Shown here one piece after another: positions 38,166-60,051 of a stretch of DNA of 64,000 nucleotides; position 1 is the stretch's first letter, and every line of letters starts with the position of its first letter. Source of the DNA: a virus. The stretch is from IMG/VR virus record IMGVR_UViG_3300031963_000013; one strand, written 5' to 3'. Made by a program: the position numbers and the translations under genes. The notes under the pieces are model-generated. The model made no database searches. It was not told where the DNA came from and saw only the letters and a program-made list of their open reading frames with translations.

Positions 38166-38468
38166 ATGGCAAGACTAAAATTTAAACAGATACTTTCAAA
38201 CCTTCACTACGATGAAGTTAACGATCAACTGATATTGAGCGGATCAAAAGTGCCAACTGCTTTACAGAATTGGGACAACGCTTCAGGTTCTTGGGAAGAC
38301 GCTCTTGGAACGTGGGACGGCAGCAGAGCGAACATACCGGACTTCGTAATATACGGATCTACGTTTGTCACATCGAGCACATACACAACCGGATCGATCA
38401 CAATAAACGGAGTAGACACGTTTGGTGATAGTGGAAGCTTCGATACTGTAGATTTAGGAGAATACTAA
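38166..38468 (+). CDS. Small virion/fibre-associated protein
   Basis: SGS/TGS-rich; ends DLGEY. Confidence 0.5.
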   Translation: MARLKFKQILSNLHYDEVNDQLILSGSKVPTALQNWDNASGSWEDALGTWDGSRANIPDFVIYGSTFVTSSTYTTGSITINGVDTFGDSGSFDTVDLGEY

Positions 38469-38498
38469 TATTTATTTACAAGATATAACACAAAAAAA

Positions 38499-41400
38499 AT
38501 GTCATCACTTACAGGACAAAACATAAAAGACACTTACCAATCACTACTAAAAGTAGGCGATAACGGTCAAGTAACAAGCGTAGCTAAAGGAGTTACCGAT
38601 GGATTAGGTAATTCAACCGGCCTATATCTCCAAAACGATGGAGTTCTATTGAGTGGATCCGTTAGCGTGTCTGGAAGTTTAAACGCGTCGGCGTCCTACG
38701 CACTCACAGCTTCATACGCATTGAACGGTGGCGGCGGAGGCGGCGGAACACCCGGTGGTTCGAATACACAGATACAGTTTAATAGTGCAAATACTTTTGC
38801 AGGAACTGGATCTTTTACTTTTAACTACACAAGTCAAAGCTTACAGCAAGGCTTAACTGTTACGGCTAAAGGACAGTATTCACACGCTGAAGGTCAGCAA
38901 ACGGTAGCAGTAGGAGATTATTCACACGCAGAAGGTAATACTACAACAGCAATAGGAGGTTGGTCACACGCAGAAGGATTTGTAACAATAGCAGTAGGAG
39001 GCTATTCTCACGCAGAAGGATCCTTCACAACAGCAATAGGAATCGGTTCACACGCTGAAGGTACTAATACAACAGCAATAGGAAATGGATCACACGCTGA
39101 AGGATTTGTAACAACAGCAGCAGGATTTGCATCACACGCAGAAGGTGAGCGGACAACAGCAGTAGGTGACTACTCACACGCTATCGGTGGATACGTCGTA
39201 GCAATAGGCAACGTTTCACACGCAGAAGGAAGCAATACAACATCAGTTGGAAACAGCTCTCATGCTGAAGGTAATACTACAATAGCAGTAGGTGACTATT
39301 CACACGCAGAAGGTAGACAGACAACAGCAATAGGAGTCGGTTCACACGCAGAAGGTGGAAGTACGACAGCAATAGGAGGTGGATCCCACACAGAAGGTCA
39401 GTTTACTATAGCAATAGGAGGCTACTCGCATGCCGAAGGTGGTCTTACAATAGCAGACGCTTTATCAGGCTACTTCGGTATACAAGGCTACTCACATGCC
39501 GAAGGTTACTTAACTGTAACATCCGGATCTATAGCTCACGCTGAAGGATATCAAACAACTGCGATAGGGAATATGTCCCACGCTGAAGGCGGCCTTACAA
39601 TAGCAATAGGAGACTATTCACACGCAGAAGGTCTAAGTACAACAGCAGTAGGAAATAGCTCACACGCAGAAGGTCAAAATACAACAGCAGTTGGTTTAGC
39701 ATCCCACGCTGAAGGTGACCAAACAACAGCAATAGGAGGTGGATCCCACACAGAAGGTCAGTTTACTATAGCAATAGGAGGCTACTCGCATGCTGAAGGT
39801 AGTAATACAACAGCAGTTGGTTTAGCATCACACGCCGAAGGAAGCAATACAACATCAGTTGGAAACAACTCTCATGCTGAAGGTGGTCTTACAATAGCAA
39901 TTGGACTTCAATCACATGCTGAAGGTCGGTTTACAACAGCAATAGGAGGCTATTCTCACGCAGAAGGTTCTAATACAACAGCAGTAGGAACCCACTCACA
40001 CGCTGAAGGTAGTAATACACAAGCAATTGGTGCAGATTCACATGCAGAAGGCGGCTTTACAATAGCAGAGGCACTCACAAGCTATGGTGGTATACAAGGC
40101 TACTCACATGCTGAAGGTTACCAGACAGTGACGTCAGGCTCGATGGCTCATGCTGAAGGATATCAAACAACTGCGATAGGGAATATGTCCCACGCAGAAG
40201 GTCAAAGCACGACTGCAGTAGGACAACAATCACACGCAGAAGGATTTATAACAACAGCAATAGGAGACAGCTCACACGCAGAAGGTCAAGGTACAAGAGC
40301 GGTAGGACAACAATCACATGCAGAAGGTTCTAGTACAACAGCGGTAGGAAACAATACACACACCGAAGGTGACCAAACAACAGCAATAGGAGGTGGATCC
40401 CACACAGAAGGTCAGTTTACTATAGCAATAGGAGGCTACTCGCATGCTGAAGGTGGTCTTACAGTAGCAAATGCTGTTTCTGGTTATAATACGTTATTTG
40501 ACGGATTTGGTACAATTCAAGGCTACTCACACGCTGAAGGATTCAAGACAGTAACATCAGGATCAGCAGCACACGCTGAAGGTTACCGTACAACGGCTTT
40601 AGGCAATTTATCCCACGCTGAAGGTTCACTTACGAAAGCAACAGGAGATGTTTCACACGCTGAAGGTAATAATACAACAGCTATAGGCACAGGTTCACAC
40701 GCAGAAGGTCAAAGCACAACAGCGGTAGGACGAGGATCGCACGCAGAAGGAATTGGTACAATAGCAGTAGGAGACTATTCTCATGCTGAAGGTACTCAAA
40801 CAACAGCAATAGGATATGTATCACACGCAGAAGGTAACAGGACGACAGCAGTAGGAGACTATTCTCATGCTGAAGGATTTGTAACGATGGCAATAGGAGG
40901 CTACTCACACACCGAAGGGTTTACTACAACAGCAATAGGAGATTGGTCACACGCAGAAGGTGTAGCAACAACAGCAGTAGGAGTTTACTCACATGCAGAA
41001 GGTGAATTTACAACAGCAATAGGAACTGGCTCACACGCAGAAGGATTTGTAACAATAGCAGTGCAACGCAATTCCCACGCTGAAGGTAGTGGTACAATAG
41101 CATTAGGAGGCTATTCTCATGCTGAAGGTTCTCAAACAACAGCAATAGGAACCCACTCACACGCTGAAGGTGAACGCACAATAGCATTAGGCCAATCATC
41201 ACACGCAGAAGGTGCAAGTACAGTAGCTTCTGGCTCTTACCAACTAGCTATAGGCGGATATAACACTCAGGGAGATGATAAATCGGCTTTCATAATTGGC
41301 GCTGGAAGTATACTGACCAGAGCAGACGCTCTTAAAGTACAAGTATTTAATAGCAGTGGATTACAAAACGTAGGCACGCTTGCAACAAGCTCAGTAGTGC

Positions 41401-41516
41401 TACCTCAAGTATCACAATCTCTTAACTTTGCAGACGATACTGCAGCCGCAGCTGCTGGTGTTCCGCTAGGAGGATTGTATCACACAACAGGTACCATAAA
41501 GATAAGATTGACATAA
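38499..41516 (+). CDS. YadA/Hep-Hag-like beta-roll fibre or adhesin
   Basis: 54 repeats of about 14 aa, xxTxAxGxxSHAEG; PGGSNTQIQFN and AAAAGVPLGGLY modules. Confidence 0.8.
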   Translation: MSSLTGQNIKDTYQSLLKVGDNGQVTSVAKGVTDGLGNSTGLYLQNDGVLLSGSVSVSGSLNASASYALTASYALNGGGGGGGTPGGSNTQIQFNSANTFAGTGSFTFNYTSQSLQQGLTVTAKGQYSHAEGQQTVAVGDYSHAEGNTTTAIGGWSHAEGFVTIAVGGYSHAEGSFTTAIGIGSHAEGTNTTAIGNGSHAEGFVTTAAGFASHAEGERTTAVGDYSHAIGGYVVAIGNVSHAEGSNTTSVGNSSHAEGNTTIAVGDYSHAEGRQTTAIGVGSHAEGGSTTAIGGGSHTEGQFTIAIGGYSHAEGGLTIADALSGYFGIQGYSHAEGYLTVTSGSIAHAEGYQTTAIGNMSHAEGGLTIAIGDYSHAEGLSTTAVGNSSHAEGQNTTAVGLASHAEGDQTTAIGGGSHTEGQFTIAIGGYSHAEGSNTTAVGLASHAEGSNTTSVGNNSHAEGGLTIAIGLQSHAEGRFTTAIGGYSHAEGSNTTAVGTHSHAEGSNTQAIGADSHAEGGFTIAEALTSYGGIQGYSHAEGYQTVTSGSMAHAEGYQTTAIGNMSHAEGQSTTAVGQQSHAEGFITTAIGDSSHAEGQGTRAVGQQSHAEGSSTTAVGNNTHTEGDQTTAIGGGSHTEGQFTIAIGGYSHAEGGLTVANAVSGYNTLFDGFGTIQGYSHAEGFKTVTSGSAAHAEGYRTTALGNLSHAEGSLTKATGDVSHAEGNNTTAIGTGSHAEGQSTTAVGRGSHAEGIGTIAVGDYSHAEGTQTTAIGYVSHAEGNRTTAVGDYSHAEGFVTMAIGGYSHTEGFTTTAIGDWSHAEGVATTAVGVYSHAEGEFTTAIGTGSHAEGFVTIAVQRNSHAEGSGTIALGGYSHAEGSQTTAIGTHSHAEGERTIALGQSSHAEGASTVASGSYQLAIGGYNTQGDDKSAFIIGAGSILTRADALKVQVFNSSGLQNVGTLATSSVVLPQVSQSLNFADDTAAAAAGVPLGGLYHTTGTIKIRLT
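38856..41250 (+). repeat. Degenerate 42-bp tandem coding repeat array
   Basis: ACAGCARTAGG..TCACAYGCNGAAGG period; identical 68-bp blocks at 39366, 39726 and 40380. Confidence 0.9.
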
Positions 41517-41543
41517 ACAAAAATAATTGTTATATTAATAGCT

Positions 41544-42665
41544 ATGAAAGTTTTAGTTATATTCCCTGACAGCATTTCTACGCCTACAGGAGGCCTTGGT
41601 GTGCAATTTAAGAACATACACTCTAGGTTAAAAAACAAGATAGATTTTTACGTGGCAGGTTACCCAGACGGCCCAAACGGGGTTGATAATTACGTAGGGG
41701 TTTACCACCCTATACCGTCAATAAAACACGGATCTGTTAACACTTTGTTGGGCCACACTATATACCTGGCAGAAGCTTTAAAGTTTCCAAAACCTGATGT
41801 AGTTCACGCGTACGATTGGTCCACTTACTTTGCTGGGGTTTACTTAGCACAAATACACAACGTACCGTTGCTTTTATCAATGCAACTTTCAGCAAACGCG
41901 ATGGTCTCTGCTGGAATTACAAACTGTTACGACTTCAATACAGTAGACGGTTACTGGTTGCACAAAGCTCACGTAGAGACTGAATGGTTTGGTCTGCAAA
42001 AAGCAGATAAAATTATAAACGTTTCTAAAGGGTACGCAAAGTATTTCCCTCAGTTCTCCAATAAAACTACGATCATACCAAACGGAATCGATCTAAAAGA
42101 TTGGCAACCCACAGACAAAGTCAAATTACCAGGAGATAGAAAACACAAGATCGTCTACATAGGTCGTTTTTCCTTAATGAAATCAACAGACGTTTTACTT
42201 GACGCAGAAATACCAGAAGACGTAGATCTAATATTTGTTGGATCTTACAATGGAGGAGATCATGCGTGTGTATCCAAACTAGAAAAAACCATCGGAAATA
42301 AACCGGGGTTTCACTATTACGGTCCCGTGTACGAACAAGACAAAGTAAATTTACTGCATTCAGCCGACGCAGTCATAATGCCCAGCAAACACGAACCCTT
42401 CGGTATCGTAGCGTTGGAGGCCTTAGCGTCTAAAAACGTATTAATAGCTTCCAGAGTAGACGGGTTGGGGGATTTTTTGAATGACGATAATAGCATCAAC
42501 TGCGGATTAACAGCAGAAGACATGTCAGCAGCTATGCACAAATTCACACAATTAAGCGATTTAGAGAGGGAAAACATGATTGAAAACGGTCTTAAGACGT
42601 GCGAACAGTACAAATGGGACGAAATAGCCGAAGAATATTACGAAGTTTATAAATCTATGCTATGA
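41544..42665 (+). CDS. GT4-family glycosyltransferase
   Basis: GGLG, HAYDW, IIPNGID, YIGRF..K, PSKHEPFGIVALEA. Confidence 0.9.
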   Translation: MKVLVIFPDSISTPTGGLGVQFKNIHSRLKNKIDFYVAGYPDGPNGVDNYVGVYHPIPSIKHGSVNTLLGHTIYLAEALKFPKPDVVHAYDWSTYFAGVYLAQIHNVPLLLSMQLSANAMVSAGITNCYDFNTVDGYWLHKAHVETEWFGLQKADKIINVSKGYAKYFPQFSNKTTIIPNGIDLKDWQPTDKVKLPGDRKHKIVYIGRFSLMKSTDVLLDAEIPEDVDLIFVGSYNGGDHACVSKLEKTIGNKPGFHYYGPVYEQDKVNLLHSADAVIMPSKHEPFGIVALEALASKNVLIASRVDGLGDFLNDDNSINCGLTAEDMSAAMHKFTQLSDLERENMIENGLKTCEQYKWDEIAEEYYEVYKSML

Positions 42666-43708
42666 AAGTAAAAGTAAGTTACGTTACCCAAAACCCGACT
42701 ACATTAGGTTCACCAACGATAGCTGTCGCAGATTCACCTTACGAAAAAATACTTGGAGATTTGACAGATCTGTCTGATAACACGTCTTACAAAATAGAGT
42801 TAAACAAACAGAACAACTTTACTTATTTTGGTCCAAAACAGTGGTTTGGTCATTGGGATGTAAAATTACACAATCCGTTTGGAAAACAGATACACTCAGA
42901 GACCTACGATGCGACTGGTAAAACTGTCTTCATCAAGATAGACGCATCAGCGCTGGGAGACAATCTGGCTTGGATAGACTACGTGGATCAGTTTAGAGTC
43001 AAACACAATTGCAACGTTGTATGTTCGACTTTTTTTAACGAACTGTTTATAGACTCGTACCCAAAGATAATGTTTGTAAAACCAAACACTAGAATAGATA
43101 ATGTCTACGCGCAGTATTACGTAGGAACAAACAACCATTTAAATCGTGTGTACCAACCATCTTTGTATTTAGATAACCCTTTACAAAAGATAGCATCCGA
43201 TATATTGGGATTGAAATACCGAGAGTCCGTAGCTAAGATAAAGTTACCCACTCATTTACAGAAGAAAAAACAAGTTACCATAAGCGAATACGCCTCTTTA
43301 AGAGTCAAAGAGTGGAATGTAGTGGGTGGCTGGCAGTCTATAGTAGATCTGTTTAACAGTTTAGGTTTTGAAGTGATAGTAATAAGCAAAGAATACTCTT
43401 ACTTACAAAACGTAACTAACAAATCAGGAGATCTTCCATTAGAGGATAGGATTAAGGACATATACCAATCCAAGTATCACGTAGGACTGTCAAGCGGTCT
43501 ATCGTGGTTAGCCACAAGCTGTTGTACGCACACATTTTTGATATCAGACTTTACTCCACCGTATCACGAAATAAAATCAAACGTAACTAGAATATACAAC
43601 GAAACACACCCAAGAGACTCAATAACCTACTCAGAAGTGAAAAATCCAGTAACCATTGAGCACGTCCTAGACAAAATAAGACTAAAATTAAACAAAGACG
43701 GTTATTAA
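42662..43708 (+). CDS. AAH/TibC-like (autotransporter O-heptosyltransferase; GT9-like fold) glycosyltransferase
   Basis: GKTVFIKIDASALGDNLAWIDYVDQFRVKHNC, PLQKIASDILGL, KEWN..GW, GLSSGLSWLA..LISDFT. Confidence 0.75.
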   Translation: MKVKVSYVTQNPTTLGSPTIAVADSPYEKILGDLTDLSDNTSYKIELNKQNNFTYFGPKQWFGHWDVKLHNPFGKQIHSETYDATGKTVFIKIDASALGDNLAWIDYVDQFRVKHNCNVVCSTFFNELFIDSYPKIMFVKPNTRIDNVYAQYYVGTNNHLNRVYQPSLYLDNPLQKIASDILGLKYRESVAKIKLPTHLQKKKQVTISEYASLRVKEWNVVGGWQSIVDLFNSLGFEVIVISKEYSYLQNVTNKSGDLPLEDRIKDIYQSKYHVGLSSGLSWLATSCCTHTFLISDFTPPYHEIKSNVTRIYNETHPRDSITYSEVKNPVTIEHVLDKIRLKLNKDGY

Positions 43709-43749
43709 TGGTATTTATTAGAGAATTATTGACACTTAAAACAAAAAAT

Positions 43750-43956
43750 ATGTGGGAAAAAATCAATAAACTATCTGTAAAAGTAGTTGTAGCTGTCATC
43801 ATTGTACTAGCAAGTTTTGGTTTACTGTACTTTTTATTATTCAAACAAGTACCTGAACACAACAAACAACTTTTAGATGTAATGGTCGGTGCCACTGTTG
43901 GCAGCTCGATGACAGCTGTATTGGGATGGTTATTTACGCAATCTAAGACGGGATAG
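43750..43956 (+). CDS. Small two-TM protein (holin-like)
   Basis: Two hydrophobic helices; start at ATG 43750 after TATTTAT at 43712. Confidence 0.5.
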   Translation: MWEKINKLSVKVVVAVIIVLASFGLLYFLLFKQVPEHNKQLLDVMVGATVGSSMTAVLGWLFTQSKTG

Positions 43957-43981
43957 TACGCAATATTACATATTTATTATA

Positions 43982-44040
43982 AGCTATATAGCTGCGCCAA
44001 TAAATTTAGTATATACTAATCCCCTATTGACACATGTCAA
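43982..44040 (+). promoter_or_regulatory. Three tandem hairpins with AYAT loops, the last covering the start codon
   Basis: AGCT-ATAT-AGCT, TTAGT-ATAT-ACTAA, TTGAC-ACAT-GTCAA. Confidence 0.6.
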
Positions 44041-47843: not shown

Positions 47844-47853
47844 AACATTAAAT

Positions 47854-48723
47854 ATGTTTAAAGTAAGAGGTAAAACTAGAATTGGACCGTTAAACATACT
47901 TAGAGATGCTGTCGTTGCATACTCTTTAAGACGCATTAATCCTAACTATAGTGGATTTGCAATAAGAGTTAGAAGAACAGGCGATAACGCAGAACAAGAC
48001 ATTGGGTTTAACAGCGATGGAACATTAGATCAAACAGCTATAGTAAATTTTGTAGGAGGCAATATCGGTCACATAAGCATATGGTATGATCAATCTGGAA
48101 ATAATACACACCAATTTAGAGGCATAAACGATGGTGGAGCGGGCTTTGATCGTGGGCCAATAATACTAAGCGGCGTAATACAAACAAACCCAACAAATGG
48201 ACTACCAGCTGCTTATTTCGACGGTTCAAGGAGCATGATTTCTAATCCAATCACAAATATTACTTCACTTCAAGGAGAGTGGAGTACAATTGCCGTATCA
48301 AATTCTTTTTCTTCTGCTACAAGAGTGTTAATATCATCAGATACAGTAGGTGTTAGACTTGGACAATTTCTTAGAATAGCAAATTCAAATATATATTCTA
48401 CTGTTGGATTCAACACTGCTGGAACCGCGGTAAGGGATGATAATTCTGTATTAAGAACTAATAATGATTTTAATATATTATTTTCATACAGAGATACTTC
48501 TTTTGTAGAAATATTTGTAAATAATTTTAGTAATGGTAAAACGTTTGTTTCTGGAACTCCTGCTTCAGGTTTTAATACTCCAATAGAGCTTGGATATAGA
48601 AATTCAATATTTAGTACTGTTTGGCAAGGTTATTTACAAGAGGTTATACACTACAACGTTACTAACATTAATCGATACGTTGACATAACTAATTCAATCA
48701 ACAGTTATTACAGAATATTTTAA
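47854..48723 (+). CDS. ConA/LamG-like (arabinofuranosidase-B-type fold) putative receptor-binding protein
   Basis: AYSLRRI..AIRVRRTGDNAEQDIGF..WYDQSGN..GYLQEVIHY. Confidence 0.65.
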   Translation: MFKVRGKTRIGPLNILRDAVVAYSLRRINPNYSGFAIRVRRTGDNAEQDIGFNSDGTLDQTAIVNFVGGNIGHISIWYDQSGNNTHQFRGINDGGAGFDRGPIILSGVIQTNPTNGLPAAYFDGSRSMISNPITNITSLQGEWSTIAVSNSFSSATRVLISSDTVGVRLGQFLRIANSNIYSTVGFNTAGTAVRDDNSVLRTNNDFNILFSYRDTSFVEIFVNNFSNGKTFVSGTPASGFNTPIELGYRNSIFSTVWQGYLQEVIHYNVTNINRYVDITNSINSYYRIF

Positions 48724-48725
48724 TT

Positions 48726-49526: not shown

Positions 49527-49553
49527 AATTCACCGTATTTATATCAAACCCCC

Positions 49554-49577
49554 GTCTCAGGGACAGTGAACTGAGGC
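49554..49577 (+). promoter_or_regulatory. Leader hairpin with a GGACAGTGAA loop
   Basis: GTCTCAG/CTGAGGC stem between the late motif (49536) and ATG (49586). Confidence 0.55.
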
Positions 49578-49585
49578 AGTACTAA

Positions 49586-52500
49586 ATGGCAAACGAATTC
49601 GTAGCGCGCAATGGTCTAATTGCGTTAGACAACTCAACAATTACTGGTTCTTTAGGTGTATCCGGTGGCATCACTGGATCTTTGTTTGGTACTGCCTCAT
49701 GGTCTACAAACGCTCTCACTGCATCCTTTCTTTCAGGATCTGTAGAAAACGCGGTAAGCGCTTCATTCGCTACAACAGCTTCATTCGCTATTTCTGCTTC
49801 TTGGGCGCCAACAGGCAACGCTACTATTACTGTAGGAGACGAGGGAACAACGCAAGGTACAGCAACTTATTTTAATTTTATAGGCGCCGGAGTAACAGCA
49901 ACTGTGTCTTCCGATACCGCTTCTATTAACATTCCCGGCGGAGCAGGAAGCACGTTTCCTTTTACCGGATCGGCTATTATAAGCGGCAGCCTGATTGTAA
50001 CAGGATCTATTTTTGTTACTCAATCACATATATCAACTGTAGATTACGTTGATTTTAACATAAATGCAGCAACTCCAACGCACGTAGAAGGTAGAATACA
50101 CTGGGATATAGATAGGAAAACATTAGAGCTAGATACTGACGTTAACAACTTTATGATTAACGTTGGTCATATGAATGTTTTAAGGGGAAGAAATACAAAT
50201 CCGTTTACACTAACTAAAGGAACAGTTGTTTATATCAACGGCAATTCTGGCCAATTTGCTACATTTGCAACAGCAAGTTGGGAAGATGATCCTAGATCAG
50301 CATACACTATTGGTGTTATAGCTCAAGATGTAAATTCTAACAACTTCGGTTACGCGATCACAGACGGAGAAATCACAGGTATCAATACAAACGCATTCGC
50401 TCCAGCAACATTACTGTACCTATCTTCTTCAGGTCAATACACCAGCGTTGTACCTACTGCTCCTAATCACACAGTGAGATTGGGGCAAGTAGTTGTTCAA
50501 TCTACTAGCGGTATTTTACAAGTTAAAGTAGATAATGGATACGAATTAGGGGAACTTCACGATGTTCGTGATACTACAACAACATCTTCTTACGGAGATT
50601 TATTAGTTAAGAGCGGAAGTATTTGGGCGACAGGGAAACAATTAACCGGTTCGTACGGCCTAACTGGATCTCTCAACATAACAGGTTCACTACGTTTATC
50701 AACGCCAACGTATAACACATCCAGCATTAACGTACTAACGTACAATACGGGAAGTGACGAAGTAGAGTACAGTACCATTAACGATTTAACGTTTACTAAA
50801 AACATTGTTACCGTAGGTTTACAAGGGAGTAGAGACGTTAATTACAATGTCATTAAAACAGCTGTAGAAAGCATTACAGACGCAGCTGAAAATAACACAT
50901 ACACGGTAAGAGTTTATCCAGGCATCTACATTGAAGACACAATCACAGTGCCTTCTTGGGTAGCTGTAAAAGGCGACAGTTCAATTTCAACAGTAGTATC
51001 AGCGTCAAACCCGAGCCAAAGCGTATTCGTAATGAGCGACCAGTCAATGGTCATCGACATGCAAGTACAGGGATCAACCGGACCAGGTGCTTCAGCTATC
51101 GTATATTCATCAGCAACGACTCCACAAAGAAATGCTATCGCATACGCTGAAAATATTCGTTTTGGAACCAATTACACCAACGCAAAAGTAATTGGTAGTG
51201 GAAGTAGCGGTAACTGTATATTACAGTGTTCTAATGTTAAGTATGGTGGTTACACAGACAATACTTTACAAAAATCATTTGATGTAGGTTTCCACGTTAC
51301 TTCTGGTTCAAGTGGTGGTATTGGTAGAATGCAGTTACGTAACGTAACTTCTACTAACGGTGGTGTAGCAGGAACAGACAATAATCAAATCTTTGCCTTA
51401 GCAGATGCCCCAGGTTGTACATTCATTGTTAATGGATGTTTATTAACAAGAGCAACTGGTACTGCTAGAGGTACTGGATTTAAAGTATATAATGGAGGTC
51501 AACTTCGCTTAACAGGTGTTAACTTCCAAAGATGGATAAATGGTATTTGGGCTCCACAAACAGGATCTGCTCCAAGTATAGATGCTATTGCCCTTAACTT
51601 TGAAAACTGTACTACTGACGTATTAATTGAACACACAGGTTCAACTGGTAAAGTACAAGGAACAGATAACTTCTTAAAGACACAAATCGCATTAAATGCC
51701 CCTCTTTATGAAGTAGGACAAGATCCAAGAAAGATAACCGTTGGTAAAAAAGGAGCTGACTTTACTTCAATCAGTGCTTCTGTAGCTTACATTACAGACT
51801 CAGCTGAAGATAATAGGTATGTAATTGAAGTAGGACCTGGTCAATTTACAGAAAATACAATCGACTTAACAGGTAAACCCTACGTTAGTATTGTAGGTAG
51901 TAACATTCAAACTACCCAAATATTCCCAAGCGCATCTAACCAGCACATCATTAAGATGGGTATCAATAACGAGGTATCCTTCTTAAGTTTAGCAAATGCT
52001 GGATCTGGGTATTCCGCTTTGTATATTGATGATGTTGGTGATTTTGCTCAAGCACATAAAATTTCAATAAACAATTGTGATAGGGGTATAACTATAAATG
52101 CAAGTACAACCGACACTCAGTTTTATGGTGAATATATTGATATAAACGGGGCTTTCACTTATGGTGCTTATGTATCATCTAGTGGTGGCGCTTCAACATA
52201 TTGTAACTTAGAAAACTATTACTTATTCCCATCAGCAAGCGCTACTATAGGTAACTATGCTGTTGGCCCTAGCTCAAGTCTAAATCTATATGTAGGATCA
52301 TTTATAGGAGACGGAACTACTAATTCAACAGCAGTAAAGCTAGAAGACGGAGCAACTTTAGAAGCAGGTGCTTTAGATGTACAGGGGTGGGATTATGGGT
52401 ACGTTGTTCCTAATGTTGGCAATCCTCCACTCTTTAGAGTAGTGGGATCTATGATACACGATTCTACAACCTATGATTTTGATATACAAAAAGTAGGCAC

Positions 52501-55500
52501 TCAAGGAAGGTATCAAGGTATATCTGATCATACCAAAATAAACAGTGTAAGTGAAGATTTTTATTGGAACTTCTTAGATGATACAGACGGTGAAAATGAC
52601 ATTACAAGAAAACTATCTGTAACATTTGCAGACGGTACTCACACAGACGCTACTACCCTTATCTTTAAAGGTAGCTCAATGGGAGTATTGGAAGGAGGAA
52701 CCATAACAATCTCCGGTAGCTTAACCGTTACCACAGCCGCAGGATACGGTTACTTACACGATCCAATCAATCCAGAAGTGTTTAAAAGGTTTGATTGGGT
52801 TAACCAAAATATAACTCTATCTCCAAACACTAACAACTATATTTACATCAACAGCAACGGCGTGTTGTCAGCTGCGGGCTCAACACCAAACTTTGCTCAA
52901 AACATTATATTAGGAAGGGTAGTTACAAACGATACTGGAGTTGAGTTAATAGATCAAAGCCCATGGAACGCAGAACACACAGCAAATAGGTTATCTAAAT
53001 TCAATAGAGAAGCCTTAGGACCTGTGTTTGCTGAAGGATCTATTGTTACCGAAAACGTTACGCCGTTTAAATTAGACGTGACACAGGGTAGCTACTACTT
53101 CTCAGAAAACAACTTCCTACCAGCAGGCACATCATCAATCAATCTAACACAATATTACCAAAGCGCTTCAGTTTGGGCTAGATACACTTCATCCATAGTG
53201 CCAAACAATGTGTACGCTTCAAGTAGTGCTTTAGTAGCAATGTCTGCTTCAGCGTACACTAAACACACAGTGTACCTTGTGGGAGATGGTGTAGATGAAG
53301 AATACTTCTTAGTAATTAACAACAACCAATACAACACTCTAGTAGAAACTGAAGGCGCAGACCTACCAACCATACCAACGTACTTTAACGACGGCGTAGT
53401 GCCGTTAGCCGCAGTGTACGTCCAATCAGGCTCCGCTAACATAACGCAAATACAAGACATTAGACCGATTATTGGTTTTAGAGCTGCTGGTGTAAACGCA
53501 TCTGCTGTACACGGAAACTTATTAGGTCTAAACGCAGACGATCACACGCAGTATCTTCTTGTTGATGGTGGCAGACAAATGAGCGGTGATTTGGGATTAG
53601 GAGGAAACGATCTCTACAACGCTAACCTCATATCGGGATCAAATGTCGAAGCCCCTACAGCAACTATCGCAAACATAAATGCCACTTCGATTACTGGCTC
53701 ATTGCTTGGAAATGCGACTTCTGCAACAACAGCGTCATACATTCTACAAGCAGTAAGCGCATCGTTTGCATCAACTGCCAGCTTTGTACTTAACGCTGTA
53801 AGCAGTAGCTTTGCCTCTACATCATCGATAGCCACTAGCGCTTCGTTTGCAACCAGTGCTTCTCAGGCACAAAATGCCTTAACTGCTTCTTACATTTTAG
53901 CATCGGGTGTTGCTGGTTTGAATCTTACACAAATAGCAACAGGCAGTGTAACCGCTTCTGTATCTCCGTCTCAATTTAGTGTAGTAAGTGGAAGCGTAAC
54001 TGAGTTTGTAGTAACTGGAACAGGTACACGTATAGGAAGTGTAATTACAGACACACATACTATAACCGGTTCTGTTAATATAAGCGGAAGCACAACAATA
54101 TCCGGAAGTTTAATAGCCTTAAATACAAACACGACTAATAGTTTAATTGTTGGAGGAGCATACACATCAAGCGCAACTAACCAATATCATACTATATACA
54201 ATCCGTCAATAGCAACAAGAAATGCTTCTGGAGACAATGTTTATTCTTTACAAATTAATCCACAATACACTGTTAATAATAGCCAAACTGTATACGGTCT
54301 ATTAGTTGCTCCAAACGTAACGGTAAATTCAGCTCATACTTTTGTTAATCAAAGGATTGCTCATACTGGTGCTGGTGCACAAAACATGGCGATTAAGGGT
54401 TTAGAGATTGATATCAATGCGGGTGGAGGTAACCCAGGCAACAAAATAGGCATTGATATTGCCGGATTTACTCAATTTAATCCAGGATCTACTGTTTCTG
54501 CTGGAATTAGAATGACTGACATTAACGTGCCTTATTTGTTAATGATCAACAACGCCAATAACCAGGCCTGCAGTACAGTAATGAGAAACAACGCGGGTAG
54601 CACACTTGTACAATCATTATCAGGTACTACTGGAGGAAATTCTGCTGATATATATACTACTGGAACAACAGTTCCTTTAAGATTGGGAGTTAATTCTTTA
54701 ATTTATTTCCAAATATTTAACTCAAGCGGAAATGTTGGAATTAATACAAACACCGACGCAGGCTTCCGCTTAGACGTTTCTGGATCTACTCGCCTAAATG
54801 GAGATACAGTAGTAACTGGCTCCTTCACCGTAGTTACAGGAAGCGCAAGAGAGCTCCAAGTTAGAAATGTAGGAGTTGATATTGGAAGTATTATAACAGA
54901 TACTCACACTGTAACCGGTTCTTTCAACATATCAGGTTCGTTAAATGCGCCCATCATAACCGGCTCTCTGTTTGGAACTGCTAGCTGGGCTAACAATACG
55001 TTAACTGCATCCTTTGTACAAAATGCACAGAGCTCATCTTTTGCGTCAACTGCTTCGTTTGTACAGAACGCTCAATCAGCATCTTACGTTTTACAAGCAG
55101 TATCCGCTTCGTTTGCAACAACTGCTAGCTTCGTACTAAACGCAGTAAGCAGTAGCTTTGCCTCTACATCATCGATAGCAACTAGCGCTTCGTTTGCATC
55201 TACATCATCTATAGCAACAAGTGCATCATTTGCAACAACAGCTTCATTTGCAGTATCAGCTTCATGGGCACCAAGTACAGCAACATCAATAACAGTAGCA
55301 GACGAAGGATCTACTCAAGGTACTGCAACTTACTTTAATTTTACTGGTGCTGGGGTAACAGCCACAGTATCATCTAACACAGCATCTATAAGCATACCTG
55401 GCGGCGCTGGTGCTACTTTCCCATTCACAGGAAGTGCAATCATAAGTGGTAGCTTGATTGTAACAGGATCTACAATATCAACTTTAGGATTTACAGGATC

Positions 55501-56239
55501 ATTAGAAGGAACAGCTAGTTGGGCAAACAATGCTATTAGTGCATCGTACGTTTTACAAGCAGTGAGTTCTTCGTTTGCATCAACCGCATCGTTTGTACAG
55601 AATGCACAAACAGCTTCTTATGTACTACAGGCAGTAAGTGCTTCGTTTGCTACAAGCGCTTCCCAAGCTCAAAACGCAGTAACAGCATCTTACGTGCTAC
55701 AATCGGTAAGTTCATCTTTTGCATCAACTGCTTCGTTTGTACAATTAGCACAAAGCGCATCTTATATTTTACAAGCAGTAAGCAGCAGCTTTGCCTCTAC
55801 ATCATCGATAGCAACAAGCTCTTCTTTTGCGTCAACAGCTTCATTTGTACAGAACGCTCAATCAGCTTCGTACGTATTACAAGCAGTGAGTTCTTCTTTT
55901 GCATCTACGTCTTCAATAGCGATAAGTGCTTCATTCGCAACAACAGCTTCATTCGCAGTCTCAGCTTCATGGGCACCAAGCACTGGTGGAAGTGGACTAA
56001 GGACCAAAGCAGGTTCAGTAGCAAACACTTCATTTACAGGTAACCCAAGAAAAGCAACAGTAACGTTTGGCGCAGCATTTACCGATACAAACTACGCAAT
56101 AACAGTAACAGGTGAAGATGCTAGATCGTGGACTATAGAATCAAAATTAGCTGGTAGCTTTGTGATAAACGCAAACAGCAACCCAGCCTTAGCAGGAACA
56201 ACTTATTGGATAGCAACAGCGTACGGTGAAACAACTTAA
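49586..56239 (+). CDS. Giant tail fibre/spike protein (2217 aa) with beta-helix-like domains and Ser/Thr/Ala repeats
   Basis: MANEFVARNGL start; two pectin-lyase-like entries (VRVYPGIYIE, IEVGPGQFTE); ASFA/ASYV repeats. Confidence 0.75.
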   Translation: MANEFVARNGLIALDNSTITGSLGVSGGITGSLFGTASWSTNALTASFLSGSVENAVSASFATTASFAISASWAPTGNATITVGDEGTTQGTATYFNFIGAGVTATVSSDTASINIPGGAGSTFPFTGSAIISGSLIVTGSIFVTQSHISTVDYVDFNINAATPTHVEGRIHWDIDRKTLELDTDVNNFMINVGHMNVLRGRNTNPFTLTKGTVVYINGNSGQFATFATASWEDDPRSAYTIGVIAQDVNSNNFGYAITDGEITGINTNAFAPATLLYLSSSGQYTSVVPTAPNHTVRLGQVVVQSTSGILQVKVDNGYELGELHDVRDTTTTSSYGDLLVKSGSIWATGKQLTGSYGLTGSLNITGSLRLSTPTYNTSSINVLTYNTGSDEVEYSTINDLTFTKNIVTVGLQGSRDVNYNVIKTAVESITDAAENNTYTVRVYPGIYIEDTITVPSWVAVKGDSSISTVVSASNPSQSVFVMSDQSMVIDMQVQGSTGPGASAIVYSSATTPQRNAIAYAENIRFGTNYTNAKVIGSGSSGNCILQCSNVKYGGYTDNTLQKSFDVGFHVTSGSSGGIGRMQLRNVTSTNGGVAGTDNNQIFALADAPGCTFIVNGCLLTRATGTARGTGFKVYNGGQLRLTGVNFQRWINGIWAPQTGSAPSIDAIALNFENCTTDVLIEHTGSTGKVQGTDNFLKTQIALNAPLYEVGQDPRKITVGKKGADFTSISASVAYITDSAEDNRYVIEVGPGQFTENTIDLTGKPYVSIVGSNIQTTQIFPSASNQHIIKMGINNEVSFLSLANAGSGYSALYIDDVGDFAQAHKISINNCDRGITINASTTDTQFYGEYIDINGAFTYGAYVSSSGGASTYCNLENYYLFPSASATIGNYAVGPSSSLNLYVGSFIGDGTTNSTAVKLEDGATLEAGALDVQGWDYGYVVPNVGNPPLFRVVGSMIHDSTTYDFDIQKVGTQGRYQGISDHTKINSVSEDFYWNFLDDTDGENDITRKLSVTFADGTHTDATTLIFKGSSMGVLEGGTITISGSLTVTTAAGYGYLHDPINPEVFKRFDWVNQNITLSPNTNNYIYINSNGVLSAAGSTPNFAQNIILGRVVTNDTGVELIDQSPWNAEHTANRLSKFNREALGPVFAEGSIVTENVTPFKLDVTQGSYYFSENNFLPAGTSSINLTQYYQSASVWARYTSSIVPNNVYASSSALVAMSASAYTKHTVYLVGDGVDEEYFLVINNNQYNTLVETEGADLPTIPTYFNDGVVPLAAVYVQSGSANITQIQDIRPIIGFRAAGVNASAVHGNLLGLNADDHTQYLLVDGGRQMSGDLGLGGNDLYNANLISGSNVEAPTATIANINATSITGSLLGNATSATTASYILQAVSASFASTASFVLNAVSSSFASTSSIATSASFATSASQAQNALTASYILASGVAGLNLTQIATGSVTASVSPSQFSVVSGSVTEFVVTGTGTRIGSVITDTHTITGSVNISGSTTISGSLIALNTNTTNSLIVGGAYTSSATNQYHTIYNPSIATRNASGDNVYSLQINPQYTVNNSQTVYGLLVAPNVTVNSAHTFVNQRIAHTGAGAQNMAIKGLEIDINAGGGNPGNKIGIDIAGFTQFNPGSTVSAGIRMTDINVPYLLMINNANNQACSTVMRNNAGSTLVQSLSGTTGGNSADIYTTGTTVPLRLGVNSLIYFQIFNSSGNVGINTNTDAGFRLDVSGSTRLNGDTVVTGSFTVVTGSARELQVRNVGVDIGSIITDTHTVTGSFNISGSLNAPIITGSLFGTASWANNTLTASFVQNAQSSSFASTASFVQNAQSASYVLQAVSASFATTASFVLNAVSSSFASTSSIATSASFASTSSIATSASFATTASFAVSASWAPSTATSITVADEGSTQGTATYFNFTGAGVTATVSSNTASISIPGGAGATFPFTGSAIISGSLIVTGSTISTLGFTGSLEGTASWANNAISASYVLQAVSSSFASTASFVQNAQTASYVLQAVSASFATSASQAQNAVTASYVLQSVSSSFASTASFVQLAQSASYILQAVSSSFASTSSIATSSSFASTASFVQNAQSASYVLQAVSSSFASTSSIAISASFATTASFAVSASWAPSTGGSGLRTKAGSVANTSFTGNPRKATVTFGAAFTDTNYAITVTGEDARSWTIESKLAGSFVINANSNPALAGTTYWIATAYGETT

Positions 56240-56261
56240 AAAATTATATTTATAATAGATT

Positions 56262-56870
56262 ATGCCTATATTTTATTTAGATAGTGGAAGTATAGATACG
56301 CTTGAAGTATCAAGCAGCTTACTTGTATCAGGTTCGCTTGTTATTAGCGGTAGTATGACGTCAACTTCCGGATTAACAGGAAGTTTGTTTGGTACTTCTA
56401 GTTGGGCAATAAACGCTACATCAGCTTCGTTTGCTGTATCAGCTTCGTGGGCTCCTACCCAAGCAAGCAGCGGTTTTCCATTTGCGGGAATAGCGGTTAT
56501 TACAGGTTCGATAGTATTAACTTCAGGTTCTGGTTTTCCATCACTGTTAGCTTCTGAAACACTAGCAGCAGGTGATCTAGTAAACATACACTCAGGCGGA
56601 GTTAGAAAAGCTTCGAGTTCTGACATAACGAGACAAGCGCACGGTTTCGTAACTCAATCCGCAGTTGCAACCAATCCGGTCGTTGTGTTTTACTCTGGGT
56701 TGATTACAAATCGCACTTCTTTAACCGCAGGATCTAGATATTTTTTAAGCACAGATGGAGGCATACTCAGTACGCCCGCGGGTAGTCCTAATAACATATA
56801 TCAAGAGGTAGGCGTCGCGATTAGCAGTAATGCTCTATTAGTTAACTTTGGACCAGTGGTAATATTATAA
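56262..56870 (+). CDS. Fibre-associated virion protein
   Basis: TGSLFGTSSWA module and LTAGSRYFLS..G.AIS domain. Confidence 0.6.
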   Translation: MPIFYLDSGSIDTLEVSSSLLVSGSLVISGSMTSTSGLTGSLFGTSSWAINATSASFAVSASWAPTQASSGFPFAGIAVITGSIVLTSGSGFPSLLASETLAAGDLVNIHSGGVRKASSSDITRQAHGFVTQSAVATNPVVVFYSGLITNRTSLTAGSRYFLSTDGGILSTPAGSPNNIYQEVGVAISSNALLVNFGPVVIL

Positions 56871-56879
56871 AATACTGTT

Positions 56880-58022
56880 ATGGCATTTCCTTTATACATA
56901 AATTCGACAGTAGACAACTACTACATAAAAAGATCATCAAACACTGATGTAGTACAAGCGAGTCACTTTCCAGTATCAGCATCTAGTAACCTCTATTTTA
57001 CAAATTTACCCGATCCGATATATTACATAACAAGCTCAGTTACGCAAAGTATAGCCCAACCGTTGCCCGGTACGACCACTGTGTTTCTTTCAACTGTTAA
57101 AAATTTTAGAAACACTCAAGTGCATTCTCCGTTCTATTTATTGGGTACTCGTACAGCAGTAGCTGCAAGCGGTCCAACTATAGATTATGGTACAAACAGT
57201 GCAACAAAAGCTATAAATATAGCAATTGCTTCTACTGCTACTGCTTTAACTAGGGGAATAGGTGGAACAGGAGATGGTTTGTTTAGAAGTGTTGCGGCGG
57301 GTTTAGCGGTTGCAAACACAACTTACCCAACAACAATACAAGGTGTTACGTACAACGATAGCGTTTTATTCCCTACCAATGTAACAGACTTTTTTATAGG
57401 CTTAGCATCAGAAAATACAGATAGAGTAACAATAAACTCAGGAAGTATTTATCTGAATAGATTTATAGGTTATAGTAGTAGTCTAGCTCCGGTTACATCA
57501 AGTAGACCTTTAAATATAAGCGGAAGCAGCATTGCGCAAATACCGGCCGGTAATTTAATATCAAGCTCTGTTTTATTCGATACTGCAAGTTTGTGGCAAT
57601 CGCAGAGTTTAGCTACAGACGTTGCTAATACTAGTAATACTGCTTACGTAACCGTGTTTACCACTACGGGATTGACAAACGGTAAAAGATATCTAGCTAA
57701 CTTATATTTAATAGGAAGATCGGCAGCCGCAGCAACGGGGTTTAGGATGCGTGTCATTACAGGCAGCAATTACTTGGGAAGCCTGTTTACGCCCACGTCC
57801 ACCACCGCGTACGCAATTCAAAATTCAGCAGACGGTAACAATATAACAAGCATTACAGCCGGTACCTGGCCAACGTTAAACACAAACTTTTTGGTCTACG
57901 GAGAGTATTCGTTTGTAAAAACAGCCGCAGGTGACCCTCAGGTACAAATACTAAGCGAAACAGGCGGTACAGCTGTTACAGCCGGTTCGGGTAGCGTATT
58001 GTTTTACAGAGTAATAGAATAG
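56880..58022 (+). CDS. Beta-rich virion/fibre protein
   Basis: S/T/G-rich composition; operon position. Confidence 0.55.
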   Translation: MAFPLYINSTVDNYYIKRSSNTDVVQASHFPVSASSNLYFTNLPDPIYYITSSVTQSIAQPLPGTTTVFLSTVKNFRNTQVHSPFYLLGTRTAVAASGPTIDYGTNSATKAINIAIASTATALTRGIGGTGDGLFRSVAAGLAVANTTYPTTIQGVTYNDSVLFPTNVTDFFIGLASENTDRVTINSGSIYLNRFIGYSSSLAPVTSSRPLNISGSSIAQIPAGNLISSSVLFDTASLWQSQSLATDVANTSNTAYVTVFTTTGLTNGKRYLANLYLIGRSAAAATGFRMRVITGSNYLGSLFTPTSTTAYAIQNSADGNNITSITAGTWPTLNTNFLVYGEYSFVKTAAGDPQVQILSETGGTAVTAGSGSVLFYRVIE

Positions 58023-58026
58023 TATT

Positions 58027-58596
58027 ATGAGTCAATTTTCAAATAGCATCATATCGCCGATAAGCATTTTATCCGGATCGTGGACAACGTCGGTATCCGG
58101 AGGGTTTTCTATGCAGCTACCGAGCGGAAGCATACCAACGTATCTTGCTGCTAACACCCCTTGGAGATATTCGATGCTATCAACTGCATTTACAACTACA
58201 AATACAGCTCAGCAAACTATAACCGGTTTACAGATAACTTTAGAAAACAACAAAAGGTATTTAATATACGGCAACCTGTTGGTATCAACTATCAGATCGG
58301 CTAACGGACCGAGGGTGGGAGTAACAGGCGCAAACTTAGCTCTTAACATATATAACATAGAAAATCCGACATCAACCACCGCCGTGCAACTCGGCCTAAA
58401 TGTCACAGCCACAGCGGGCTCAGGCCCTGGAAACAGCTTAACGAACTACTACTACGTACCCATAAGAGCGCTAGTAAGGGCGGCTCCCACAGGTGCACCC
58501 ACTTGGGCGCCAACGCTATCATCGGAGGGAGCAGCTGGTGGCGCAACCGATGTTGGAATGGGTCCCTACAGCCACGTCTATTACAGAGAGTACTAA
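58027..58596 (+). CDS. Beta-rich virion protein resembling the C-terminal domain of 56880-58022
   Basis: LENNKRYLI and PTSTTA shared with LTNGKRYLA and PTSTTA. Confidence 0.55.
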   Translation: MSQFSNSIISPISILSGSWTTSVSGGFSMQLPSGSIPTYLAANTPWRYSMLSTAFTTTNTAQQTITGLQITLENNKRYLIYGNLLVSTIRSANGPRVGVTGANLALNIYNIENPTSTTAVQLGLNVTATAGSGPGNSLTNYYYVPIRALVRAAPTGAPTWAPTLSSEGAAGGATDVGMGPYSHVYYREY

Positions 58597-58618
58597 TATT
58601 TATATAAAATAAGCAATC

Positions 58619-58894
58619 ATGGGATTAATCATATGCAAGTCGTGCTTCGATTCAAAAATAGCAAGCTGGAAAAAACCGTTTGACGAAAACGCAGGCGAGT
58701 TAGAATCGATTCCAGACTACAACGAATACGCTCAACACGCGCACATTTACCAGGTAACAGACATCGCGTCTAAACTCGACAACGGTGAAATGGTAGAAAT
58801 ACTGTGTGCTGTGTGTAAAATAACACACGTTGCAAAAGACGCGAACGGAGTAATTAAAGTAAAATACACCGGAGGCAACTGGGAAACATTTTAA
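58619..58894 (+). CDS. Small zinc-binding hypothetical protein
   Basis: CKSC..CAVC; late motif upstream. Confidence 0.55.
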   Translation: MGLIICKSCFDSKIASWKKPFDENAGELESIPDYNEYAQHAHIYQVTDIASKLDNGEMVEILCAVCKITHVAKDANGVIKVKYTGGNWETF

Positions 58895-58917
58895 CACAAC
58901 AAACTAACACACAGTAA

Positions 58918-60051
58918 ATGGCACTAAATTTTCCTTCTAACCCGGTTCTCGATCAAATCTACGTAGGTCCTTTGGGCCAAAAGTGGAAGTGGAACGGCAC
59001 CGCGTGGATCTCTTTTAACGAGATTGCAACAGTGCCAACCGCATCGCTGTCCCTGGGTGGCTCTGGGTCGTTTTCGGGCTCTTTCAGTGGCTCGGGAGCA
59101 GATTTGCGTAATATACCATCGTCCGCGATAGTAGGTCTCAATCTGTCCCAGATCTCTTCTGGGAGCGTTAGTGCATCTATGTCGCAAGAAGGTTTATTGG
59201 TGAACACTAGAGTTGTGGCTACGTCTTTCACAGGTTCGTTGTTTGGAACAGCTTCTTATAGTTTGCTAAATCTTCAACAGGTAACGGATAATGGAACGAC
59301 TACAACAAATAACATAACAGTATCAAACGCAAACGCTTCTTTTAACGTAGAAAACACAACACCTGAAATATTTGCAGGTTTTGAAGCTGATAATTCAGAA
59401 GCAAGAATAAACATAGGCGTTGCTTCGGGCAATGTTTTACGTTTAAAAGGCGGTTTAATTACAGGGGATAGAATTATAAACTTTCCCAACAAAAGCGGCA
59501 CACTTCCGTTATCAGTAATACTAGAAAACGTAGAGTATACTGCCGATGATACAGGGAGTATAGTGCTTGGCGCTGTAAAAAACGCAGCAACAGCGTCTTA
59601 CATTTTAGCCTCAGGGGTGGCAGGTTTAAACCTGACTCAGATAACAACCGGCAGCGTAAGCGCGAGTGTAAGCGTATCTACCTTCTCTGTTACAAGCGGA
59701 AGCGTAACCGAATTCGTAGTTACTGGAACTGGTGTAACTATTGGAAACGCAGCAACAGATAGACACACCGTAACAGGTTCATTAAATTCTCCTAACATTA
59801 CTGGATCTTTGTTCGGTACTGCTAGTTGGGCGGTATCTGCATCTTGGGCACCAGGAGGTGGAGGAGGAGGTGTATCTTCGATAACAATAGCAGATGAAGG
59901 AACTTCTCAAGGCACCGCAACATTTATTAACTTTACAGGAGCGGGAGTCACTGCTACAGTATCATCGAACACAGCATCTATTAACATCCCTGGTGGAGGT
60001 AGTAGTGCTAGTCCAACCTTAAATTTATTTAATTACTTTAACTTTTTCTAA
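58918..60051 (+). CDS. Fibre protein assembled from modules shared with 44034 and 49586
   Basis: MALNFPSNP..WKWNGTAW N-terminus; LQQVTDNG, GLNLTQI and ADEG modules. Confidence 0.7.
   Translation: MALNFPSNPVLDQIYVGPLGQKWKWNGTAWISFNEIATVPTASLSLGGSGSFSGSFSGSGADLRNIPSSAIVGLNLSQISSGSVSASMSQEGLLVNTRVVATSFTGSLFGTASYSLLNLQQVTDNGTTTTNNITVSNANASFNVENTTPEIFAGFEADNSEARINIGVASGNVLRLKGGLITGDRIINFPNKSGTLPLSVILENVEYTADDTGSIVLGAVKNAATASYILASGVAGLNLTQITTGSVSASVSVSTFSVTSGSVTEFVVTGTGVTIGNAATDRHTVTGSLNSPNITGSLFGTASWAVSASWAPGGGGGGVSSITIADEGTSQGTATFINFTGAGVTATVSSNTASINIPGGGSSASPTLNLFNYFNFF

Follow-up and report, generated by a model that had tools for sequence, protein, structure and literature searches.

A stretch of 64,000 nt from the viral record IMGVR_UViG_3300031963_000013 (referred to below as the window) carries a cluster of fibre genes, studied here from position 38166 to 60051, that is interrupted by a 2.4-kb accessory cassette (41544-43956). 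The cassette is composed of a GT4-family glycosyltransferase, a homolog of TibC and Aah, the enzymes that modify autotransporter adhesins in Escherichia coli (the BAHT family), and a small membrane protein, and it lies between the gene of a fibre built of a repeat containing the residues SHAEG (the SHAEG fibre) and the next fibre gene. We propose, with moderate confidence, that this is a mobile, fibre-decorating cassette arranged around a minimal, phage-specific TibC-type enzyme, whose substrate would be the SHAEG fibre and possibly also loop serines of neighbouring fibres, and that the Ser-rich tripeptide [ST][GAS]S, which is frequent in most of these fibres, would be a pre-existing structural feature.

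The window derives from a large myovirus, a distant relative of T4 that is kin to phages of Bacteroidota and cyanobacteria. It encodes a major capsid protein of the Gp23 type (32692-34365, Pfam 3.7e-78) and a gp25-like baseplate wedge protein, and its TerL shares 56% identity with that of Flavobacterium phage vB_FspM_immuto and 52% with that of Microcystis phage Mel-JY01. At the DNA level, a search of the studied region against 50,697 phage records gave no match. From 38166 to about 60051 every gene lies on the + strand, with fibre-like products, and the following features were recognized (aa, amino acids; motif, the tripeptide [ST][GAS]S):

38166..38468, + strand: conserved protein of 100 aa at the head of the fibre cluster, with 5 motifs against 0.6 expected
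38499..41516, + strand: SHAEG fibre of 1005 aa, YadA-head-like (Pfam YadA_head, 1.8e-84)
41508..41536, + strand: sigma-70-like promoter match (TTGACA-17-TATATT with TG)
41544..42665, + strand: GT4-family glycosyltransferase of 373 aa (GT-B, retaining-type; Pfam Glycos_transf_1 and Glyco_transf_4)
42662..43708, + strand: minimal TibC/Aah-type (BAHT) protein of 348 aa (TIGR04414, match to TibC in PDB, fold)
43708..43956, + strand: small protein of 82 aa with two hydrophobic stretches, the last gene of the cassette
43960..44033, + strand: conserved AT-rich intergenic element, found also before the orthologous fibre start in the related contig L084
44034..47843, + strand: motif-rich fibre of 1269 aa, with 62 motifs against 14.6 expected
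47854..49526, + strand: two paralogous structural proteins of 289 and 266 aa (47854-48723 and 48726-49526; PHROG 10356)
49586..56239, + strand: giant fibre of 2217 aa, with 102 motifs against 23.7 expected and without Pfam match
56262..60051, + strand: five further open reading frames (ORFs) of the fibre cluster, of 202, 380, 189, 91 and 377 aa, without Pfam match

The cassette is flanked directly upstream by the SHAEG fibre gene and directly downstream by that of a Ser-rich fibre, and the GC content is 37% in 42-44 kb and 44% in the flanks. The promoter-like site, 8 nt upstream of the GT4 start, agrees with the consensus in 11 of 12 positions, a match to the consensus only, as Bacteroidota promoters differ. 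At the other end, the AT-rich element marks the right-hand border of the cassette and may be a late promoter. It precedes a fibre gene both in the window (43960-44033) and in L084 (L084:14770-14845), with the pattern …atatttatta…agcta.atagct…agta.atactaatcc…. This contig, the closest to the window and 58% complete, lacks the cassette at the same junction: its gene order is a homolog of the gene at 36911, the 100-aa protein (79% identical), a SHAEG fibre, a 164-nt spacer and a motif-rich fibre, and no BAHT was found on the contig.

The GT4 protein matches Glycos_transf_1 (7e-21, 74.9 bits, cut-off 26.4) and Glyco_transf_4 (6e-12, 46.3 bits, cut-off 28.5), and an EX7E-type stretch, HEPFGIVALEA, is readable in its sequence; its NCBIfam matches are all far under the equivalog cut-offs, and PHROGs classifies it among the moron/auxiliary genes. 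The two hydrophobic stretches of the 82-aa protein were read as transmembrane segments, and this protein gives only weak, sub-threshold Pfam matches to membrane proteins. In the slot between the SHAEG fibre and the BAHT gene, two other loci (L004 and L007) carry, replacing the GT4, genes for a sulfotransferase, a fusion of an adenosine 5'-phosphosulfate (APS) kinase with a nucleotidyltransferase, and a DUF2061 membrane protein, and no homolog of the window GT4 was found near the BAHT gene in any of 80 other BAHT loci, indicating that the tailoring partner of the TibC-like enzyme is exchangeable. The APS-kinase fusion could possibly supply 3'-phosphoadenosine 5'-phosphosulfate, and the gene content of these two cassettes hints at a sulfated instead of an extended glycan. 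At L004:7854-10004, with the same genes in L007, the sulfotransferase matches Sulfotransfer_3 (1e-20) and the partner of the APS kinase in the fusion is cytidylyltransferase-like.

A minimal TibC-like enzyme

The gene at 42662-43708, whose start overlaps the GT4 gene by 4 nt, codes for a protein that matches the NCBIfam family TIGR04414 (hepto_Aah_TibC, 'autotransporter strand-loop-strand O-heptosyltransferase') at 6.3e-48; its score of 163.6 bits does not reach the equivalog cut-off of 200 bits, the homology being clear. In PDB it matches the TibC chains 4rap/4rb4 over residues 76-313 (5.5e-23), and it has no match in Pfam. The AlphaFold2 (AF2) model, calculated on an alignment with 19 homologs, has a pLDDT of 95.2 and contains about eight strands in residues 1-93, which form an N-terminal beta-barrel, followed by the alpha/beta lobes of a GT-B-like catalytic domain. 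When this model was searched with Foldseek, the best 21 matches were all TibC chains (TMq 0.78-0.86, E-values down to 1e-26), aligned over the full length including the beta-barrel, and the lipopolysaccharide heptosyltransferases WaaC/WaaF came next, at about 0.5.

The residues that carry the reaction in TibC are kept. In the HMMER alignment, the catalytic base Asp110 corresponds to D100, and K216, R263 and W282 take the places of the donor contacts Lys230, Arg286 and Trp305; Thr226 is conservatively changed to S212, and Pro300, a determinant of stereoselectivity in TibC, is replaced by S277, the residue that Aah has at that position (PMC4358343). D100, S212, K216, R263, S277 and W282 are invariant across the 19 homologs, which show 40-72% identity, as expected if the enzyme is active and kept so by purifying selection. 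The window enzyme shares with the TibC-TibA and Aah-AIDA-I systems of E. coli the fold, N-terminal beta-barrel included (TM 0.86), the catalytic Asp, the Lys/Arg/Trp donor contacts and, with Aah, the Ser in place of Pro300, and also a gene arrangement in which the enzyme adjoins a long, Ser/Thr-rich, adhesin-like protein made of beta repeats.

In contrast to those systems, the window enzyme is a phage protein paired with a GT4, stays under the TIGR04414 equivalog cut-off and is shorter (348 aa, against about 406 in TibC). Two elements of TibC are missing. The last Cys of the window enzyme is C288, its chain stops 35 residues past the aligned core, and the Cys4 iron finger (TibC Cys339/342/358/370) is absent both from it and from all 19 aligned homologs. 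The beta-hairpin thumb used in ring assembly (TibC Phe265/Val266) is removed by a 9-residue deletion at exactly that position. In TibC, both the dodecamer and the activity depend on the iron-finger cysteines and on the thumb residues, and mutants in either of them are inactive (PMC4358343). With both elements missing, a dodecameric ring is unlikely, and substrate handling in the phage branch must differ from that of TibC.

Relatives of the window BAHT are encoded on 468 IMG/VR contigs. Its best prokaryote match, 41% identical, is found in contigs of metagenome-assembled genomes (in a collection with one genome per species, 185,579 species), and the canonical bacterial BAHTs (from Acetobacter, Gluconobacter, Trinickia and Victivallales) are about 30% identical to it. 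Judged by sequence, the window enzyme is a member of a large, phage-specific, minimal branch of the TibC/BAHT family. Literature searches on phage TibC-like enzymes and on phage BAHTs found no paper.

Fibre genes beside BAHT genes

The SHAEG fibre (38499-41516) contains about 48 copies of the 14-residue repeat xSHAEGxxTTAIGx, which is of the beta-roll type seen in the heads of trimeric autotransporters. Pfam YadA_head matches it over 14 stretches, and its PDB matches are BpaC (8e-15), Hep_Hag (1e-9) and YadA (1p9h, 1.5e-7). It shares the YadA_head repeat with these trimeric adhesins but differs from them in its variant SHAEG/TTAIG repeat and in its ends, as the N-terminal 73 aa and the C-terminal 50 aa or so are common to other giant phage fibres, and no membrane anchor or stalk family was found in it by the Pfam scan. 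Its head fold is like that of a trimeric autotransporter adhesin, but it is not one itself. Unlike the partners of TibC and Aah, which are classical beta-helical autotransporters, the neighbour of the window enzyme is thus a virion fibre with a YadA-like repeat and no anchor, and it is the likeliest partner for the TibC-like enzyme.

The gene neighbourhood was compared, within 10 kb, between 80 viral loci centred on a BAHT gene and 80 control loci. A homolog of the SHAEG fibre was found in 22 of the 80 BAHT loci, being the immediate neighbour in 14 of them and in several unrelated gene contexts, and proteins with at least 8 SHAEG units were found in 20 of the 80. After dereplication at 80% identity, a SHAEG-repeat protein lies within 10 kb in 11 of 36 BAHT clusters, against 1 of 80 control loci. 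BAHT genes adjoin fibre genes far above chance, and the SHAEG-repeat fibre is their most frequent neighbour. ORFs rich in the tripeptide are also more frequent near BAHT genes (10 of 92 ORFs within two genes of BAHT, against 3 of 288 farther off; Fisher p 7e-5), a statistic that is confounded by the general nearness of BAHT to fibre genes.

Other forms of the enzyme have other fibres beside them. BAHT forms of 399 aa precede Ser-rich proteins of 577-752 aa, and fused BAHT forms adjoin collagen-like fibres with SSG/GTS (L052, L062, L067 and L076-L078). The window differs from the latter loci in that its enzyme is short and stand-alone and in that its neighbours are a SHAEG beta-roll and stalk fibres with [ST][GA]S. 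In the cultured Microcystis phage Mel-JY01, a BAHT domain ends a 1226-aa protein, encoded after a structural protein with 24 motifs (7.5 expected). This 1226-aa protein (L271:4340-8020; PP395634.1 4750-8430) is annotated only as 'methyltransferase FkbM', and its C-terminal TibC-like domain is 35% identical to the window enzyme.

As for the remaining fibres of the window, that at 44034-47843, directly downstream of the cassette, gives a weak match to the short tail fibre gp12 of T4 (1pdi, 1.4e-4) and contains, near its N-terminus (residues 103-127), a short collagen-like Gly-X-Y stretch (GAQGPQGPQGPSGSQGQQGPSGSS). The tandem paralogs at 47854-48723 and 48726-49526 belong to PHROG 10356, a virion structural protein (1e-10 and 3.5e-25); they also match weakly the catalytic domain of alpha-L-arabinofuranosidase B (33.8 and 24.6 bits with a cut-off of 25, the second being just below it), and could be candidate carbohydrate-binding or carbohydrate-degrading accessory proteins of the fibres. 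The stalk of the giant fibre is made of units of 6 and 9 residues ([ST][AS]S-F/Y-A-x) with globular parts between them, as in residues 1795-1890 and 1980-2125, where the units SASFAT, TASFVQNAQ and SSSFAS alternate. A single-sequence AlphaFold model of its residues 1741-2217 reached a pLDDT of 41, which makes it uninformative on coiled coil, beta-spiral or beta-helix and on the exposure of serines.

Ser-rich tripeptides with and without the cassette

An earlier note on this DNA had read [ST][GAS]S as a sequon for glycosylation, selected throughout the exposed virion proteins by the phage's own GT4 and TibC-like enzymes. Its description of the locus holds in most points: the two glycosyltransferase genes do interrupt the fibre cluster (41544-42665 and 42662-43708), the second of them is TibC-like in family, PDB match, fold and catalytic residues, the peptides that were quoted are present in the proteins, and the rarity of the tripeptides in primase, terminase and portal, which had been noticed by eye, corresponds to 0 motifs in each. 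When the motifs of each protein were counted against 500 composition-preserving shuffles, an enrichment beyond composition was seen in most fibres, with z of 17 at 49586-56239 (102 against 23.7), 13 at 44034-47843 (62 against 14.6), 6.5 at 58918-60051 (19 against 5.2), 5.5 at 38166-38468 (5 against 0.6) and 3.9 at both 56262-56870 and 56880-58022. The claim that the flanking structural proteins are motif-rich stands for these, and fails for the SHAEG fibre (12 against 10.8), for the 189-aa and 91-aa ORFs within 56262-60051, which are not enriched, and for the paralogs at 47854-49526, with 0 and 1 motifs. The major capsid protein (32692-34365) shows a mild excess (7 against 2.5, z 2.8), with 8 against 2.2 in its ortholog from the relative G001.

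As the earlier note had also stated, the motif reaches non-repetitive sequence: the centre of the giant fibre (residues 131-1340) contains 28 motifs against 6.0 (z 9.2), and a tandem-repeat artefact was accordingly ruled out as the sole cause of the enrichment. SGS, TGS, TAS and SAS rank among the most enriched of all tripeptides. Their codons are diverse, AGY and TCN serines being both used and no 9-mer being dominant, which excludes an origin at the DNA level and means that the signal acts at the protein level. The usual context is hydrophobic-[ST]-[GA]-S-[FLWY]-A-hydrophobic, which resembles a strand-loop-strand, and in the stalk parts the motifs are spaced by 6 and 9 residues. The tripeptide is probably a structural turn or stalk element. 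A full-text literature search for the motif peptide gave nothing relevant.

Relatives of the phage were collected as 80 loci around homologs of the conserved structural gene at 35252-36418, and in most of them there are fibres with z of 5-21 and no BAHT within 10 kb. The closest near-complete relative, G001 (183,411 bp, about 100% complete by CheckV), is collinear with the window from the window's first gene to 36911-38164, with identities of 78% for TerL, 82% for the portal and 78% for the major capsid protein. A profile search of its whole record, which finds BAHT in the positive controls G005 and G006, found none, and blastp against the window proteins found neither a homolog of the window GT4 nor a SHAEG fibre. 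Its two giant fibres, with 110 motifs over 1298 aa and 99 over 1592 aa, are denser in motifs than those of the window; G001 is a linear contig that ends inside the fibre cluster, so that a small unassembled remainder is possible. In the 100-aa protein, S25-G-S27, T69-S-S71 and S89-G-S91 are invariant in the cassette-less orthologs from L084 and L087. Full searches found no BAHT in ten related contigs (G001-G004, G007-G014; 38-100% complete), nor did tblastn find one in Flavobacterium phage immuto, which is a weak transferase-less control because it carries another annotated glycosyltransferase. In this phage, the 373-aa hypothetical protein gp056 (L081:12166-13287) contains 17 motifs against 3.1 (TGSL…SGSL…TGSI), and the annotated tail fibres are not enriched. 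Searches by tblastn with the window fibres themselves found little, because the low-complexity filter masks their motif-rich parts.

The earlier note had named beforehand, as evidence against its proposal, an equal motif density in relatives lacking the transferases, and this is what was found: G001, L084 and L087, which have neither BAHT nor the window GT4, keep or exceed the density and conserve the positions, so that the motif has not been shaped by the cassette. The tripeptide is, as far as these comparisons reach, an older, lineage-wide, protein-level feature of the fibres, present with or without the cassette. The general link between BAHT and fibres is well supported, although the specific sequon claim is not.

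Possible substrates and role of the cassette

According to the explanation favoured here, the TibC-like enzyme would act late in infection, in the cytoplasm, taking a sugar from an ADP-sugar made by the host (ADP-heptose, by homology) and attaching it to Ser or Thr residues where short loops of beta-repeat fibres begin. The SHAEG fibre would be the prime candidate, and the strand-[ST]-[GA]-S-strand elements of neighbouring fibres would be further possible acceptors. The GT4 would then add a second sugar, extending the glycan. Homologs of gmhA and rfaE were found in none of G001, G005 and G006, and no sugar-nucleotide enzyme family was matched among the window proteins scanned, which is why the donor would have to be made by the host.

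Several observations weigh against this explanation. The genes of the ADP-heptose pathway were not found in the window, G001, G005 or G006, which makes the donor uncertain, and the iron finger and the thumb, both needed in TibC, are absent from the window enzyme. Roughly half of the BAHT clusters lack a fibre gene at a distance of two genes or less, and L084 has a SHAEG fibre without BAHT. The small membrane protein of the cassette could, moreover, point to a membrane-associated target.

A more far-reaching possibility, which we regard as doubtful, is that both the strand-[ST]-[GA]-S-strand elements and the 96 S/T-x-A-x-G half-repeats of the SHAEG fibre are acceptors, the fibre apparatus being hyper-glycosylated through an iron-finger-less, non-dodecameric branch of TibC and the slot setting the type of glycan as a variable 'serotype'. 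An exchange of the slot would then give heptose with the sugar added by the GT4 in the window, heptose with sulfate in L004/L007 and no glycan in L084.

It is rather unlikely that the motif is the acceptor of a different, lineage-wide glycosylation machinery encoded elsewhere, to which the BAHT cassette would add, or in which it would change, one type of glycan. Such a machinery would fit the conservation of the motif throughout the lineage, and candidate genes exist: in the BAHT-less G001 (the record of locus L083), a cluster of about 15-20 kb, at around 45-58 kb (loci L167:6524-18740 and L168:1300-3093), codes for a GDP-mannose 4,6-dehydratase, two epimerase/reductases, a DegT aminotransferase, a GT11, a fucosyltransferase-like fusion of GT2 and GT10, and a GT1, and G006 has GT1 and GT2 matches at 30-45 kb. 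A glycosylation of the lineage's fibres by these other means is a possibility raised by the gene content of G001, but its cluster lies about 115 kb from the fibres with nothing linking them, and clusters of this kind in large phages can just as well be used to modify DNA or to alter the host surface. A thiamine-pyrophosphate enzyme is encoded nearby in G001, at 61-63 kb.

We give about the same low credence to the idea that the cassette acts on host proteins or envelope glycans, in takeover, superinfection exclusion or receptor masking, and that its place among the fibres is just a permissive insertion site. The cassette is indeed moron-like, with its own promoter-like site, its lower GC content, its presence/absence polymorphism and the PHROGs class of its GT4, and both its small membrane protein and the BAHT clusters that are not beside fibres (about half) would agree with such targets. 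However, BAHT is found beside SHAEG-type or Ser-rich fibres again and again, across many unrelated contexts and BAHT clades, including the fusions beside collagen-like fibres, and all the genes are co-oriented with the late structural operon. Enzymes of the TibC type are, in addition, cytoplasmic protein glycosylases that act on the product of the adjacent gene (PMC4358343, PMC3835316).

The sequon proposal is now very improbable. In its favour, there is a genuine enrichment, which acts on the protein level, extends to non-repetitive sequence and has a context that is strand-loop-strand-like, and motif-rich proteins are over-represented beside BAHT genes. Against it, Aah recognizes the strand-loop-strand shape and places the sugar on the first residue of the loop, no linear consensus sequon being reported for Aah/TibC (PMC3835316), and the sites mapped in TibA are N-S-G-G and T-S-A-A instead of [ST][GAS]S (PMC4358343). 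The motif is also equally frequent or more frequent, at conserved positions, in relatives without these enzymes, most of the 80 related loci lacking a BAHT within 10 kb and the ten contigs searched in full lacking one altogether, and the most frequent neighbour of BAHT, the SHAEG fibre, is not enriched in the window. Least credible of all is that the TibC-like protein is catalytically dead or repurposed, like BimC of Burkholderia, a BAHT-family non-enzymatic partner whose gene adjoins that of the autotransporter BimA: the lack of cysteines past residue 288 and the 9-residue thumb deletion would suggest it, but no change is seen among the 19 homologs in the catalytic Asp or in any donor-contacting residue, and the iron-finger-less form is a large family (468 viral contigs).

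To our knowledge, experimental proof of virion glycosylation exists only for a few mycobacteriophages, in which it alters immune recognition, and heptosyltransferases of the TibC/Aah type have been described only in partnership with bacterial autotransporter adhesins and are thought to need the iron-finger dodecamer. As cited in PMC12619734, mycobacteriophage enzymes O-glycosylate virion proteins (Freeman et al. 2023). The window resembles those phages in having glycosyltransferases encoded among structural genes, virion O-glycosylation having been shown there and being proposed here, and differs from them in that the modification cited there is of capsid and tail-tube subunits, at their C-termini, by enzymes that are not TibC-type, whereas the candidate targets in the window are fibres. 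Saturation with Ser-Gly-Ser is not a signature of the TibC-like enzymes and is thus unfit for predicting glycosylation. A minimal phage branch of BAHT, carried as a mobile cassette beside fibre genes, would extend what is known of both virion glycosylation and the TibC/Aah family, and suggests that tail fibres, the organs of host recognition, may be coated with sugars. Sister phages with and without the cassette offer a natural experiment, and the short enzyme a simpler scaffold for protein O-glycosylation.

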